Assembly: GCA_948441255.1 (NCBI GenBank)
Contig: CAOJPS010000001.1
Location: 1 to 60,741, forward strand
From: an uncultured Eubacteriaceae bacterium
GTDB taxonomy: Bacteria; Bacillota; Clostridia; Lachnospirales; CAG-274
Length of the DNA stretch: 60,741 nt
Direction: 5' to 3'
Part shown: positions 11,090 through 15,738 of the stretch, one piece after another
Layout of the letters: each line of letters starts with the position of its first letter
Position numbering within the stretch: the first letter of the stretch is position 1
Made by a program: the position numbers and the translations under genes
Notes under the pieces: model-generated
Databases searched by the model: none
What the model was told of the DNA's origin: nothing
What the model saw: only the letters and a program-made list of their open reading frames with translations

Positions 11090-12706
11090 ATGTCAGAAAA
11101 AAATTATTCTGTTAAAGAAAAATTTGCGGACAATGGCTGTATTAATTTTAAAATCAGTATTATTGAAAAAGAAATAATAAGAGATATTAAAGGAAATAAC
11201 ATAGCCGTAAAATTTTTAGTATGCGTAAAATATCCAGATGGGAAAGAGTGTAAAAAGTGGCTGGAGGATTTAACGAATATAGACTATTTTAAAGAGTTTG
11301 GAATAATTGATGTATTATTTACTTCTAAATTAAGAAAACAACTCTTAGAAACTCTTTTTGTTGAGGCAAATAAGGCGAAAACAATATATAAAATTAAAGT
11401 AAGTTCTGGTTATCAGGTTATTAATTATACACCATTATTTGTTTTTGGAAATAATTTTTACTGGAGTAAAGATATTAAAGAAGAGCTTCAAATAAACTCC
11501 CCTTATAATATTACATTGAGCAGTAAAGATGTTTTTAATGAAGATTTCCTGTCAACTTTAGAAAGCTATATGAATCTTTTACCGTGTGTAACAGAGCTTC
11601 TCTTTTATACAGCAGAGTTTGCCATAGTGAAACAATTTATCGAAAAATCTGGAATAAAATGTAGTTTTGCCACTGTTTTTATAGCCACTTCCGGACACTT
11701 AAAAACAACATTATCAGAGTTATTTTATCTTTGGCTTGATGATATCAAAGAGCAGACAATTAAGTTTTTTAATCCTCCAAAAAATAAAATTTTATTTGAT
11801 AAAATTGATTCTCTTTTGGGACTAAATCTTTTATTTGACGACCTTAGAATAATTGATAATACCTATGATAATAAAAAACAAGCACGAAATCTTGATAATG
11901 CTGTAAGGTATGCCGCAGAGGATGGAAAAGCTAATCTAATTATTACAGGAGAAACCATCGAATCTGTTGGAATATTTAGTTGTCTTGACAGAGTTTTTCA
12001 GATTTACATAAAGGAAATGAAAGCTTCTGAAATAAGGGAATTAAAAATTCGCCTGACAAACTTAAAGAAAAATTTTATGCCTTATGTTTCGGCAATGTTT
12101 GCGGAAGTATTAATAAAAAACCATAATGAGGTTATTCAATTTATTAAAGATTTTTATACTGCGAATAATAACAAAGTCTATATAGAACACGAATATGTCA
12201 CCAGAACAGAACGTTACGCAATGTTTATTAAACTGACACAAAAATTATTTGTTAAATATATTTTAAGAAACTACCCAGAAATAAATAATCTTAATGATAA
12301 TTTTGAAAAAGCGCTTAAATACCAAACCACACACCATATTAATATGCTTCAAAAGAAAAAAATTGCTGAAACAGAAACTAATTATATAATTCTATTTTAT
12401 TACGCTATATTTGAGAATAGTTCTATCAAAATACTTGAAGAACCGAGGGAATATTTAGCTAATGAGGGTACTTGCTGCGTTAATGATAAAGGTCAGCTAT
12501 TTATAACTCGTGAAACATTAGAGCAAGCGTTTCAAAAGTATTATGAAAAAAATATTTATATTAATATTAATAAATTAATCAAAAAGTTTAATCAAGAAGG
12601 TTTATTATTTTTAGATACAAGCAGCAGAGGCTATCAAAAAAATTATAAACAGAAAAAACATTATGTTATAAATTTAAAACTTTTATCAAGCAAACTTAAA
12701 GAATAA
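11090..12706 (+). CDS. Hypothetical protein (538 aa) with a degenerate P-loop-like segment
   Basis: AAAGGAG RBS. ATSGHLKTT (Walker-A-like, but lacking the GK glycine) is followed about 45 aa later by LNLLFDDL (Walker-B-like). It may be a DUF927/D5-like helicase relative; this is very tentative. Confidence 0.55.
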   Translation: MSEKNYSVKEKFADNGCINFKISIIEKEIIRDIKGNNIAVKFLVCVKYPDGKECKKWLEDLTNIDYFKEFGIIDVLFTSKLRKQLLETLFVEANKAKTIYKIKVSSGYQVINYTPLFVFGNNFYWSKDIKEELQINSPYNITLSSKDVFNEDFLSTLESYMNLLPCVTELLFYTAEFAIVKQFIEKSGIKCSFATVFIATSGHLKTTLSELFYLWLDDIKEQTIKFFNPPKNKILFDKIDSLLGLNLLFDDLRIIDNTYDNKKQARNLDNAVRYAAEDGKANLIITGETIESVGIFSCLDRVFQIYIKEMKASEIRELKIRLTNLKKNFMPYVSAMFAEVLIKNHNEVIQFIKDFYTANNNKVYIEHEYVTRTERYAMFIKLTQKLFVKYILRNYPEINNLNDNFEKALKYQTTHHINMLQKKKIAETETNYIILFYYAIFENSSIKILEEPREYLANEGTCCVNDKGQLFITRETLEQAFQKYYEKNIYININKLIKKFNQEGLLFLDTSSRGYQKNYKQKKHYVINLKLLSSKLKE

Positions 12707-12832
12707 AAAATTTTTTAAATCTGAGCGTTAAGCGTATAAACAGCTATTTTAATTATGCAATATATACATATTATAGTAATAATTTTATTATTATTATATA
12801 TGCCGATTTTAATAAAAGGAGGTTATGTACAT

Positions 12833-13003
12833 ATGTATACATCTATTCTACACAAGGCTGACGGCTGTATAGATATTGACTCTGAAATTATAAAATTTAG
12901 AGCGAAGCTTACAGCTAAGAGACTTGCCGATATGGGTATAAATCAAGAAAATATTAAATTGCTTTTAAATAAAGATAAGTATATAAACCAATTTACTAAA
13001 TAG
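12833..13003 (+). CDS. Small hypothetical protein (56 aa)
   Basis: ATG 10 nt after AAAGGAGG. The upstream part of the 82-aa ORF is hydrophobic junk without an RBS. Confidence 0.4.
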   Translation: MYTSILHKADGCIDIDSEIIKFRAKLTAKRLADMGINQENIKLLLNKDKYINQFTK

Positions 13004-13010
13004 AAAATTT

Positions 13011-13046
13011 TCCTTGCTATGGTTATATATTTTATCATAGCAAGGA
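13011..13046. promoter_or_regulatory. Perfect 11-bp-arm hairpin TCCTTGCTATG-n14-CATAGCAAGGA, 27 nt upstream of the recombinase start
   Basis: Read directly. No T-run follows it. Confidence 0.45.
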
Positions 13047-13072
13047 TAAAATATATAAGAGGGAGGAAAATT

Positions 13073-15352
13073 ATGATAAGTGAACCTAAAATCGCTATTT
13101 ACGCAAGAAAGTCAAAATTAACAGAAACAGGAAAATCTATCGATAATCAGATATCTAAGTGCAAAGCTTATGCTTTTTTGAAATTTGACGCAGGCGATAA
13201 TGATATAGAAATATATCACGATGATGGAAAATCAGGATTTTATGCTGACAGACCGGAATATTTAAAAATGCTTAAAGATATTGAAAAAGGTAAAATAAAA
13301 GCTGTTATATGCTATAAATTTGATAGAATTTCAAGGCGTACACTTGATTTGCTTAATTTAGTAGAAAGATTAAAGTCAAAGAAAATAACTTTTGTATCGT
13401 GTTCTGACGATATTGATACAAGCTCTAAAACAGGCAAAGTATTAATGAGTATGTTAGCGATTATAGCTGAGTTTGAACGAGATATTATAGCTGAAAGAAT
13501 ATCCGATAATCTTTATGAATTATCAAAAGAAGGGCGATGGCTTGGCGGTGTAACACCAACCGGATTTTATTCTAAAAAAGAATCAATTATGCTGCACGGA
13601 AGAAAATCAACTGTAAATCACCTTGAACCTATACCCGAAGAGCTTATTGCGGTAAAAAAAATTTATGAAATATTTTTACAAAAACATTCAATAAATGAAA
13701 CGGTAAGATACACTTTAAAAAATAATATCCTCACAAAAAACAATAAAAATCATACGGAAATAAGCATTAAAAATATACTTTCAAATCCTGTATATGCCAT
13801 AGCGGACGAAGATATTTACAATTACTACACTGAAAAGGGAATAGTGCTTTATGCTGAAAAAGAAAACTTTAACGGTATAAATGGCTTAATGGTATACAAT
13901 AAAACTCAGCAGATTAAAGAGCTTAAAGATGACAGTGTTACTTTAAATCCTAAATATATTCATAAAAACTCAGCAAAAAAACGTGAAGACTGGGTTATTT
14001 CCGTAGGAAAACACAAGGGTATTATACAAGGGCGTGACTGGATAGCCGTTCAGGAAACTTTAGCTGAAAATAAAAGCAAATACGCAAGACCAAATAAAAA
14101 AACAAACGCTCTTTTAGGCGGTCTTATCGTTTGTCCTGTATGCGGTAAAAATATGTATGCGCATAAAGAAAACAGGCGCTTTGAGCAAAATGGAGAACCA
14201 AGATTTGTTTATCGTTGTTCCTCAAGAAAGTATGATACAACGGCTTGTACATATAAACCGCTGAGAGGCAGTGTTATCGACAAATTTATTCTTGATACTT
14301 TATGTAAGATTGGAAGTAAAAATTCGGATGAATACTATAAAGCTCTTGAAGATGAAATCAAGCTAAACAGTTATAACGCTTTGCGAGATGAGGAATCAGA
14401 ACTTCAAAAAAAAATAAAGCGGCTTAAATCAGAATTACAGTCACAAATTGAAAATTTACGAATCGCCTCAGGAGCGTCAAAAGAATTTATAATGGCTGAT
14501 ATAAATAAATTGTCAAATGAAATAAAAGTTTATGAAAATCAGCTTAACCAAATACAAGAGAATAAAACAAGCGATACAACAACTCTTAAAGGTTTGGAAA
14601 AAGCGAGAGAATTAATAAATTCTTTTGAGAATCTGATTGATACTATGACTTATGAGGAAAAACTGGAGCTTGTACGGCTAGTTATAGCTAAAGTATATGT
14701 TATAAACAAAGATAATATTACTGATGAAAATGGTAAAAATGTCCCAAATGACGAAGTACATATTTTTCTGAAAGGTATACCAGAAGAAAATTATGAGGAA
14801 TTCTTCAAAAATATAAATCCTATAAAACGGGATTTACAGCAAAATAATGAGAATATTAAGGCTCAGCCCCATTCAAAAGGGGTTGAGCTTTTATTTTGCC
14901 GTAATTCTGATAATGCGCTTATGACATTAATTCACATTATATTACCCATTAAAGAACTTTCAGACAATCCTACGATTGGCGAAAAAATAAAATATTATCG
15001 TTTTATAAATAATCTTACACAGGAAGATTTAGCTAAATTATTAAATATAAGCCGTACTACAATAATAAAATATGAAAATAGTGAGCTTTCTGTCCCTCTA
15101 AATGTTCTAAATAAAGCGGCTGAACTATTTAATATTCCTTCTGATTTTCTTTATGATGATTACAGTTCTTTCTTAGCGTATCCTTGTTCCAAGAAAATAA
15201 AGGAAATACGCAAAAAAGAAAATCTAACACAACAGAAATTGGCTGATAGTCTTAATGTAAGTAAAAAAACAATAAAAACTTGGGAAAGCGGAAGAGGGTT
15301 AATATCCAGAGAGAATTTTCAAAAGTTAAAAAAATTATATCTTAATAATTAA
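13073..15352 (+). CDS. Large serine recombinase (SpoIVCA-like) fused to two C-terminal XRE-type HTH domains
   Basis: GGGAGG RBS. The resolvase domain includes IAIYARKSKLTETGKSIDNQ, ICYKFDRISRR and LAIIAEFERDII. A recombinase domain follows, then a zinc ribbon (CPVCGKNMYAH...YRCSSRKYDTTAC) and a coiled coil. After that come IGEKIKYYRFINNLTQEDLAKLLNISRTTIIKYENSE and IKEIRKKENLTQQKLADSLNVSKKTIKTWESG. Confidence 0.9.
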   Translation: MISEPKIAIYARKSKLTETGKSIDNQISKCKAYAFLKFDAGDNDIEIYHDDGKSGFYADRPEYLKMLKDIEKGKIKAVICYKFDRISRRTLDLLNLVERLKSKKITFVSCSDDIDTSSKTGKVLMSMLAIIAEFERDIIAERISDNLYELSKEGRWLGGVTPTGFYSKKESIMLHGRKSTVNHLEPIPEELIAVKKIYEIFLQKHSINETVRYTLKNNILTKNNKNHTEISIKNILSNPVYAIADEDIYNYYTEKGIVLYAEKENFNGINGLMVYNKTQQIKELKDDSVTLNPKYIHKNSAKKREDWVISVGKHKGIIQGRDWIAVQETLAENKSKYARPNKKTNALLGGLIVCPVCGKNMYAHKENRRFEQNGEPRFVYRCSSRKYDTTACTYKPLRGSVIDKFILDTLCKIGSKNSDEYYKALEDEIKLNSYNALRDEESELQKKIKRLKSELQSQIENLRIASGASKEFIMADINKLSNEIKVYENQLNQIQENKTSDTTTLKGLEKARELINSFENLIDTMTYEEKLELVRLVIAKVYVINKDNITDENGKNVPNDEVHIFLKGIPEENYEEFFKNINPIKRDLQQNNENIKAQPHSKGVELLFCRNSDNALMTLIHIILPIKELSDNPTIGEKIKYYRFINNLTQEDLAKLLNISRTTIIKYENSELSVPLNVLNKAAELFNIPSDFLYDDYSSFLAYPCSKKIKEIRKKENLTQQKLADSLNVSKKTIKTWESGRGLISRENFQKLKKLYLNN

Positions 15353-15390
15353 AAGAGATACCTTATTTGCTACATTTGCTTAACTGAGCC

Positions 15391-15738
15391 TCATATAGCA
15401 TTTTCAATACATCTTGCAGCGTAGGTCGCAAGTTTTGTACCCTTGTTATTTTTAAAGGTTGTGACGGCTTTAATCAGGCCTATGGTTCCGACTGAAATTA
15501 AATCTTCGCTGTCTTTGCTGTAATTGGGATATTTTTTTACTATGTGCGCTACAAGTCTTAAGTTGCGTTCCACTAGTATACATTTTGCCTCATTTTTTTC
15601 CTCATCATTTCCGTTTTGAATTTGAAAAAGCCATTTATCTTCTTCCTCAGCCGTTAATGGCTTTGGAAACGCTCCTCCTGTTGAAATGTGTGAAAAAATA
15701 AAAAAACTCTGCAAAAATCCCAAAATCGCGAAAACCAC
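15391..15738 (-). CDS. sigK: 5' segment of sigK (pro-sigma-K, spoIVCB-like), truncated by the island after ...GTKLATYAARCIEN
   Basis: GTG start after GGAGGTG. A short hydrophobic pro-sequence precedes FPKPL, ERNLRLVAHIVKKY, DLISVGTIGLIKAV and GTKLATYAARCIEN. The frame then reads AI-stop instead of the conserved EILMHLR continuation. Confidence 0.85.
   Translation of the reverse strand: MVFAILGFLQSFFIFSHISTGGAFPKPLTAEEEDKWLFQIQNGNDEEKNEAKCILVERNLRLVAHIVKKYPNYSKDSEDLISVGTIGLIKAVTTFKNNKGTKLATYAARCIENAI

Follow-up and report, generated by a model that had tools for sequence, protein, structure and literature searches.

Serine integrases act as developmental switches in spore formers and are employed as genome-engineering tools, and the control of their direction is under active study. 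Among the closest described systems, the sigK recombinase CD1231 of C. difficile, a large serine recombinase (LSR) of 505 amino acids (aa), carries a helical extension only, and its recombination directionality factor (RDF) is CD1234 (PMC5025042). The integrase of phage vB_BsuS-Goe14, a SpoIVCA-like LSR targeting spoVK, loses 131 C-terminal residues on integration, and its authors found no known domain in the detached tail (bioRxiv 10.1101/2021.11.22.469490). For SprA of SPbeta, the extreme C-terminus of the LSR was reported to affect directionality (bioRxiv 10.1101/2025.01.03.631226). Here we analyze a stretch of 60,741 nucleotides (nt) from the genome of an uncultured Eubacteriaceae bacterium of the CAG-274 lineage (assembly GCA_948441255.1, contig CAOJPS010000001.1, positions 1 to 60,741 of the forward strand; hereafter, the window), in which the LSR gene that forms the last gene of an element interrupting the sporulation gene sigK continues in the same frame into two XRE-type helix-turn-helix (HTH) domains.

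The initial annotation of this locus, made from the sequence alone, had described a single frame joining an LSR to two Cro/C1-type HTH units, and had added that the SpoIVCA-type and phage-type LSRs known so far stop after the coiled coil. The first claim is borne out by the reading frame, by Pfam domains and by AlphaFold2 (AF2) models, and the two HTH peptides that it pointed out do start at nt 14975 and ~15188. The second is correct for C. difficile CD1231 and fails for phages, given the C-terminal extension of Goe14 and an HTH_3 domain in the integrase of phage CP51 (described below). Literature searches for natural LSR-XRE fusions returned no paper describing them.

Results

A continuous frame with independent support

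The recombinase open reading frame (ORF; 13019/13073..15352, + strand) is one uninterrupted frame of 759 codons plus a stop when counted from the ATG at 13073, which was chosen as the start on account of its position 6–7 nt 3' of a ribosome-binding site (RBS, AGAGGGAGG) and of homologues that begin at the same place. The resulting LSR-tandem-HTH gene (13073..15352, +) is defined by this continuous frame together with its Pfam domains and fused homologues. Between 14800 and 14970, the region in which a stop or frameshift would have turned the tail into a separate gene, the frame is open and free of both. Contigs from four mouse-gut metagenome runs (a single study, possibly including the source sample, and represented by contigs only) are identical to the window with zero indels, one of them covering 13695–14910 and others 14895–15358, and fused homologues of 736–754 aa in other assemblies support the fusion independently.

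The fusion is confirmed, and a sequencing or assembly artefact, in which a missing base or lost stop would have fused two genes, is ruled against. The assembly does consist of 282 contigs, and low-depth unitigs break near a hairpin within the frame (described below), but all four runs lack an indel and about ten independent assemblies carry the same fusion with a conserved in-frame joint, leaving this explanation with a practically negligible probability. An internal start that would yield a stand-alone tail protein was likewise considered and rejected: no conserved ATG, GTG or TTG and no RBS was found 3' of the hairpin, where the window has an ATG without an RBS and its relative L001 has no start codon.

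Domain architecture and predicted structure

The protein opens with a Resolvase catalytic domain (residues 7–156; 13091..13540, +; PF00239, 125.9 bits), in which the alignment shows the conserved YARKS serine motif and whose relatives in the PDB include the TP901-1 and SPbeta integrases. A Recombinase domain follows (residues 189–333; 13637..14071, +; PF07508, 54.5 bits), and then a zinc-ribbon domain (residues 347–410 and 538–567; 14111..14773, +; PF13408 and AF2) with a coiled coil (residues 416–521) inserted into it. The zinc-ribbon cysteines C354, C357, C382 and C392 are invariant in an alignment of 19 sequences. In the full-length AF2 model, which has a mean predicted local distance difference test score (pLDDT) of 71, the coiled coil is formed by long antiparallel helices (416–464 and 469–499) placed between zinc-ribbon strands 360–382 and 538–567, the predicted strands of the second zinc-ribbon half being 538–544 and 561–567.

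The joint between the LSR and the HTH domains begins with a loop predicted to be disordered (residues 585–602; 14825..14878, +; pLDDT <50 in both AF2 models), followed by a predicted beta-hairpin (residues 604–625, VELLFCR...LMTLIHIILP; 14882..14947, +) that was delineated from AF2 strands, a complex prediction and the ratio of nonsynonymous to synonymous substitution rates (dN/dS). Its strands, 604–610 and 616–625, have a pLDDT of ~77 in the tail-only model and lower values in the full-length model. Next come the first XRE-type HTH domain (residues 635–693; 14975..15151, +; HTH_3, HTH_19, pLDDT >90) and the second (residues 696–757; 15158..15343, +; a second HTH_3 stretch and the AF2 model). 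The HTH_XRE similarity, on which the initial annotation depended, is clear from PF01381 (HTH_3), which matches two stretches at ~636–696 and ~706–750 (76.2 bits; cut-off, 23), and from PF12844 (61.2 bits; cut-off, 30.2). NCBIfam models of CcrB and XisF-type recombinases match the front of the protein, and RstR, HipB and MqsA-type HTH models match its back. Both tail domains are modelled as five-helix XRE bundles, for which Foldseek returned C.BclI, C.AhdI, P22 c2, SinR and ImmR (target-normalised template-modelling score 0.7–0.9, root-mean-square deviation 1.1–1.4 Å); as modelled, they resemble controller proteins of restriction-modification systems and repressors of phages and other elements.

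A complex prediction with the zinc ribbon and coiled coil (residues 335–585) as one chain and the tail (residues 600–759) as the other scored 0.64, compared with 0.18 for the best control; runs agreed in at least 50% of contacts, with a partner pLDDT of at least 80, and the score mark used is one that was reached by 58 of 80 solved complexes and by 2 of 110 mismatched pairs. Every confident contact predicted on the tail side falls in residues 604–627, which would pair with the last zinc-ribbon strand (contacts of 559–569 to 615–627) and also touch the zinc ribbon at 405–413 and the base of the coiled coil at 425–437 and 503–508. No confident contact of the HTH domains themselves with the zinc ribbon or the coiled coil appeared in this prediction, which shows at most a possible anchoring of the tail. 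The joint is thus predicted to be structured rather than a passive linker, with a disordered loop leading into a beta-hairpin that would dock onto the recombinase.

Homologues and selection

The survey for a shared fusion that the initial annotation had proposed yielded about ten homologues of the same architecture, 42–72% identical to the window protein, in a search of 5.8 billion proteins (P0003, P0004, P0005, P0007, P0008, P0009, P0013 and P0059, plus fragments), along with many relatives of 570–630 aa without HTH domains. A profile search with the tail alignment among 1.84 billion representatives returned mostly multi-HTH repeat proteins and was useful only for tail-only ORFs of ~140–170 aa and for P0238 (716 aa), a more distant fused protein found as a representative of a 50%-identity cluster. 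Of 399 sampled genomes of the class, 10 carry the joint-HTH module, and it is fused in an integrated element only in the genome of the window; a tblastn search of a phage collection with the window tail gave no match at 1e-10.

Codon alignments of pairs without saturated synonymous sites (dS 0.5 to >2) gave dN/dS values of 0.06–0.13 for the LSR core, 0.08–0.22 for the joint (residues 571–632) and mostly 0.09–0.43 for the HTH domains. The low values of the joint argue that it is constrained coding sequence rather than a read-through spacer. The L002 and L011 proteins are 91% identical in the LSR and 38% identical in the second HTH domain, for which this pair gives a dN/dS of ~1.2.

The sigK element and its attachment sites

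The 5' half of sigK (15391..15738, −) ends with ...ARCIEN followed by Ala-Ile-stop from element DNA and joins the 3' half, located on contig C30 of the same genome (578–964), into an in-frame 232-aa sigma-K reading ...ARCIENEILMNLR... across the junction. Comparison with attL on C30 placed attR at 15378..15430 (unstranded), where the P' arm GCTTAACTGAGCCTCATAT (15378–15396) is followed by the core (15399–15406) and then by the sigK arm; the core common to attL and attR is CATTTTCA on the + strand and TGAAAATG in the sigK sense. The reconstructed attP, GCTTAACTGAGACTCATAT-TGAAAATGCT-ATATGAGGCTCAGTTAAGC, is a palindrome with 19-nt inverted arms. The stop codon of the recombinase (15350–15352) precedes the P' arm by 25 nt, and the attP core is thus located outside the recombinase frame, without the split feature of the Goe14 type. 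Since attP is located shortly after the stop codon, the fusion is a permanent one in the window clade. We refer to this arrangement, a fused gene with attP just 3' of its stop, as type 1; L001 and L011 have the same layout at sigK, and in L012–L014 the gene is followed 50–70 nt further on by a complete attP palindrome, which represents the unrecombined form. Judging from these sites, the LSR core would excise an element of >15 kb from sigK. No excision joint was seen in the contigs of the four metagenome runs, and loose contig ends at 15395–15435 turned out to be sigK genes of other organisms.

Split relatives with attP in the joint

We designate as type 3 those elements in which an attP palindrome lies in the joint-coding DNA, such that integration separates the LSR from the HTH tail. 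Homologues of the joint plus two HTH domains (37–39% identical) were found in ten Oscillospirales genomes, and in all ten loci the 3' half of sigK stands directly at the start of the HTH frame. At three of these loci (L016, L017 and L022) an LSR, 41–43% identical in L017 and L022, lies 2–4 kb further on along the same strand and runs into the antisense of the sigK 5' half. In L016 and L017, the antisense of sigK is read in codon phase by the LSR frame at attR as well as by the HTH frame at attL; when these elements are excised in silico, the two frames merge into one of 749 codons that spans a palindrome of ~50 nt, GTTTCATTCAGGTATAGATAGCATTTGCTATTTTGACCTCAATGAAAC. The sigK junction of L057 is in the same phase and the HTH frame of L061 begins at the sigK junction; the L022 tail has a TAG stop and L064 is in the opposite orientation. 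A gene spanning attP is accordingly found in L016, L017, L057 and L061. Placed in this way, attP makes integration detach the tail, and excision would re-attach it. In addition, L007 (P0059) and L058 (P0238; phage-like neighbours, 15 contigs) have a fused gene with a strong palindrome in the joint, and the similarity of the tail-only copy L056 to L007 starts at the palindrome centre. L004 (P0013) could not be assigned to a type, its strongest joint palindrome having a score within the background range. As a separate observation, the integrated split recombinase frame of L017 (8514–10688) reads on without a stop for ~140 codons of sigK 5'-half antisense, so that the integrated split enzyme would carry a long host-encoded tail, unless translation stops earlier.

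A gene of related design is present in the Clostridium perfringens phage vB_CpeS-CP51, whose integrase (NC_021325.1, 26914–28881, corresponding to L070 2486–4453) has 655 aa comprising an LSR and one C-terminal HTH_3 domain, with a 52-nt palindrome in the joint (L070 4159–4212); it is annotated only as "integrase" or "putative resolvase". We infer that this palindrome is attP, in which case integration would split the gene. An integrated form was not found by an exact-pattern and protein-based scan of genome contigs, nor by blastn of the phage collection.

A terminator-like hairpin inside the reading frame

A terminator scan of the window located a hairpin at 14858..14901 (+), with a 13-bp stem (7 GC pairs), an 8-nt loop and a following U-run, TATTTTG. 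This DNA codes for the disordered loop and the first strand of the joint, the loop-coding segment (14825..14878) holding the 5' arm and the loop of the hairpin, and it is to this same protein loop that the palindrome of type 3 maps. The RNA folds with −24.7 kcal/mol (z −5.7; 0 of 200 shuffles as good), and the same structure recurs in 7 relatives, always followed by a UUUUUAUUUUG-like run (z −3.8 to −7.9). The stems differ, being GGCUCAGCCCC in the window and L006, GCUCAAUCCC in L001, L002 and L011 and GGUUGUAUCG in L013 and L014, and L012 has a shorter and shifted stem; the conserved LFC residues of the joint are translated from the U-run. L009 (P0014) has a TGA stop immediately 5' of this hairpin, and in that position the hairpin resembles an ordinary terminator. 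The structure has the form of an intrinsic terminator, with a GC-rich stem-loop and a U-run, and we treat its terminating activity as putative. Its interpretation as a second att site or a relic attP was rejected: the 8-mer AGGCTCAG of the hairpin also occurs in the P' arm of the window, but its orientation is wrong for an att arm, and the match, which is absent from L001, L002, L011 and L012–L014, was attributed to chance.

Tail loss and direction of evolution

In a quick maximum-likelihood tree of LSR cores, all type-1 genes form one clade (Shimodaira–Hasegawa-like approximate likelihood-ratio test, 99), within which truncated and tail-less forms are nested. The sister clade contains P0013, and the type-3 lineages (P0059, L016/L017/L022 and P0238) are on outer branches. 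That type 3 is ancestral and type 1 derived is the more economical reading of this tree rather than a demonstration. Loss or truncation of the tail occurred repeatedly (L006, P0010–P0012, P0014 and P0015). In L006 (3700–3930), whose LSR is 83% identical to that of the window, both HTH domains are removed by an in-frame deletion; what remains comprises an intact LSR, the hairpin and the final ~13 codons, and the sigK attR is also the same.

Neighbouring and additional features

A small ORF of 55–57 aa (12836..13003, +; identified from gene tables and alignment) immediately precedes the recombinase at all type-1 loci and also adjoins the tail ORF in L017 and L020. A single Arg is its only invariant residue, and it has no Pfam match; it is a candidate RDF. 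Just 5' of the recombinase RBS, the segment 13008–13058 can form two mutually exclusive hairpins (11-bp arms, 13011–13046; 14-bp arms, 13023–13058), and a hairpin of different stem sequence occupies the same spot in L001 and L002. No convincing operator repeats were found in 12700–15420, nor by comparing the non-coding stretches of the window, L001, L002 and L011.

At the other end of the element, beside attL (C30 2–571, L050), a Cys-rich ORF is cut by the contig end, which means that the element exceeds the 15.4 kb present in the window and that its middle is unassembled. A type-1 element in L002/L010 (6220–8013) is inserted in another LSR gene rather than in sigK, and the two recombinase ORFs overlap at the junction. 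A tblastn search with the recombinase against its own 2.6-Mb genome gave 13 further matches on ~11 contigs (two contigs with two fragments each), which suggests many serine-recombinase elements in this genome. A metagenome-assembled genome from roe-deer rumen, RGIG4831, contains four copies of the fused gene on separate contigs (L012–L015), three of which precede a complete attP palindrome; these copies may represent unintegrated or multi-copy elements.

Discussion

Overall, the window gene encodes one protein in which the zinc ribbon of an LSR is extended by a flexible loop, a beta-hairpin that would dock onto it and two XRE-type DNA-binding domains. We propose that this protein is a member of an old family whose LSR and double-HTH tail share a single reading frame running through the attachment site. 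Integrated copies of relatives that branch more deeply, in which the attP palindrome occupies the loop DNA, would encode a tail-less enzyme and, at their opposite end, a tail ORF; the circular excised form would encode the fused enzyme. In the window clade, attP would have moved to just 3' of the stop codon, leaving the tail always attached, and the old attP position would now hold a conserved terminator-like RNA hairpin. The tail may act as a sequence-specific DNA-binding module held beside the zinc ribbon, and the intragenic terminator may limit the amount of full-length enzyme. The window thus contains a permanently fused variant of an architecture that is conserved and barely described, its split design being known in print from phage Goe14.

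With respect to function, our tentative preference, for which we would put the chances at somewhat below even, is that the tail works in the free-element phase, in integration or in the control of the circular form, rather than in excision. On two independent grounds, the tail is probably dispensable for excision: integrated type-3 copies encode an enzyme without it, and type-1 derivatives that lack it are maintained in sigK, where excision should be preserved by host selection for sporulation. A role in the free element is favoured because the tail is canonical for DNA binding and is predicted to be anchored beside the domain that reads the outer part of each att half-site. Several points weigh against this interpretation. 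Constraint on the HTH domains is uneven, with a second-HTH dN/dS of ~0.9–1.2 in the L002 lineage, and the tail was lost several times; taken together, this implies that integrated sigK elements like that of the window could gain little from the tail. The docking score expresses the confidence of a model for two halves of one chain and is no measurement. The tree, on which the question of split versus unsplit ancestry rests, is a quick one, midpoint-rooted and with long branches. No operator-like repeat was found that the att flanks share with the promoter region and the joint. Finally, if the intragenic terminator were efficient, the resulting mRNAs would lack a stop codon and would hardly be expected to give a useful product.

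Other explanations of the tail draw on overlapping evidence. It may be a fused transcription factor, with the HTH domains binding an operator of the element (at the promoter of the recombinase or of a neighbour) to repress or time expression and with the recombinase only as its carrier. Both domains are indeed canonical for XRE/HTH_3, with controller proteins and repressors as their nearest folds; their recognition-helix regions diverge strongly between close recombinases (L002 and L011), as in immunity modules; and the palindrome at 13011–13046, between the small ORF and the recombinase RBS, is kept in position in L001 and L002. However, separate XRE regulators stand beside the recombinase in L004 and L058, as does an ImmR/ImmA-like pair in CP51, and the tail would therefore not be the only repressor; no repeated operator motif was found, and the predicted tethering to the zinc ribbon through the docked hairpin would be odd for a free repressor. 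We consider this explanation rather unlikely. A quite unlikely one, in our estimation, is that the tail is a built-in directionality device acting through protein contacts, an RDF in cis, in which the beta-hairpin, with or without the HTH domains, would bias the enzyme toward or against excision. The predicted contacts with the zinc ribbon and the coiled-coil base (425–437 and 503–508) are consistent with such a device, given that the SPbeta RDF binds the zinc ribbon (DBD2) and the adjoining coiled coil and that the extreme C-terminus is needed for excision (bioRxiv 10.1101/2025.01.03.631226), that engineered integrase-RDF fusions switch direction (PMC5737554) and that the DNA state decides whether the enzyme has a tail in split relatives. 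Nevertheless, the HTH domains make no confident contact, the separate conserved small ORF beside every member is the more usual kind of RDF candidate, and the window enzyme, being tailed in both states, could not tell them apart by its tail alone.

The hairpin within the frame invites two further explanations. The tail of the window clade could be a relic, if most transcripts ended at the intragenic terminator and left the enzyme effectively tail-less, with the frame persisting through weak selection or recent ancestry. The strong and conserved hairpin that precedes the tail, the repeated losses and truncations, and the dN/dS near 1 in one lineage all point in this direction; on the other hand, the frame is open and both HTH domains are recognisable, at dN/dS 0.09–0.43 over dS of 0.5 to >2, a terminated transcript would have no stop codon, and the tail is kept across clades that are ≤42% identical. 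On balance, we find it very unlikely that the tail is a relic. Alternatively, the double-HTH tail and docking hairpin could form a natural state-dependent module in which, for the window clade, the terminator has replaced the DNA state, the ratio of tailed to tail-less isoforms setting the direction or timing of recombination at sigK; we offer this as a speculation of low probability. Our preference remains, with the reserve stated above, a role of the tail in the free-element phase.

A DNA-binding tail anchored, as predicted, at the place where directionality factors act would offer a possible further way of controlling integrases, and in many members of the family the tail is gained or lost through recombination itself. 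Closely related enzymes that act on the same sigK site and have their tail fused, split off or deleted provide a natural comparison set, in which a terminator-like RNA structure is moreover conserved inside a coding frame, and the occurrence of the same gene type in CP51, a cultured phage, makes the idea testable at the bench. There are also consequences for annotation, as such genes are labelled only "integrase" or "recombinase family protein" and the tail ORFs are called unrelated XRE regulators.

The closest parallels in phages are CP51 and Goe14. The CP51 integrase, from a cultured temperate phage, has one HTH domain, not two as in the window, and is ~34% identical to P0238. Goe14 shares the long C-terminal extension and, with L016, L017, L057 and L061, the split design; the window differs from it in that attP follows the stop codon, which leaves the gene whole after integration. 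The SSV-type tyrosine integrases of archaeal viruses and plasmids likewise have attP inside the integrase ORF, with integration splitting the gene as in the split LSR relatives (PMC7253208, PMC8371274), but they belong to another superfamily and their catalytic protein is broken, whereas the LSR relatives lose only a tail and the window gene is not split at all. Engineered integrase-RDF fusions (PMC5737554; SPbeta Int-RDF, PDB 9dxd) resemble the window enzyme in carrying a C-terminal add-on at the zinc ribbon and coiled-coil base; they are artificial and their add-on is a known RDF, whereas such a role of the natural HTH tail is conjectural. With the skin-type elements of B. subtilis (SpoIVCA) and C. 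difficile (CD1231), the window element shares the terminal LSR gene, insertion in sigK at ...ARCIEN|EILM..., in-frame restoration of the gene, the order of the LSR domains and a small ORF nearby. Unlike the window enzyme, SpoIVCA is without an HTH tail; compared with CD1231, to which its sequence is only distantly related, the window enzyme has ~190 further residues, comprising the loop, the beta-hairpin predicted to dock and the two XRE-type HTH domains.

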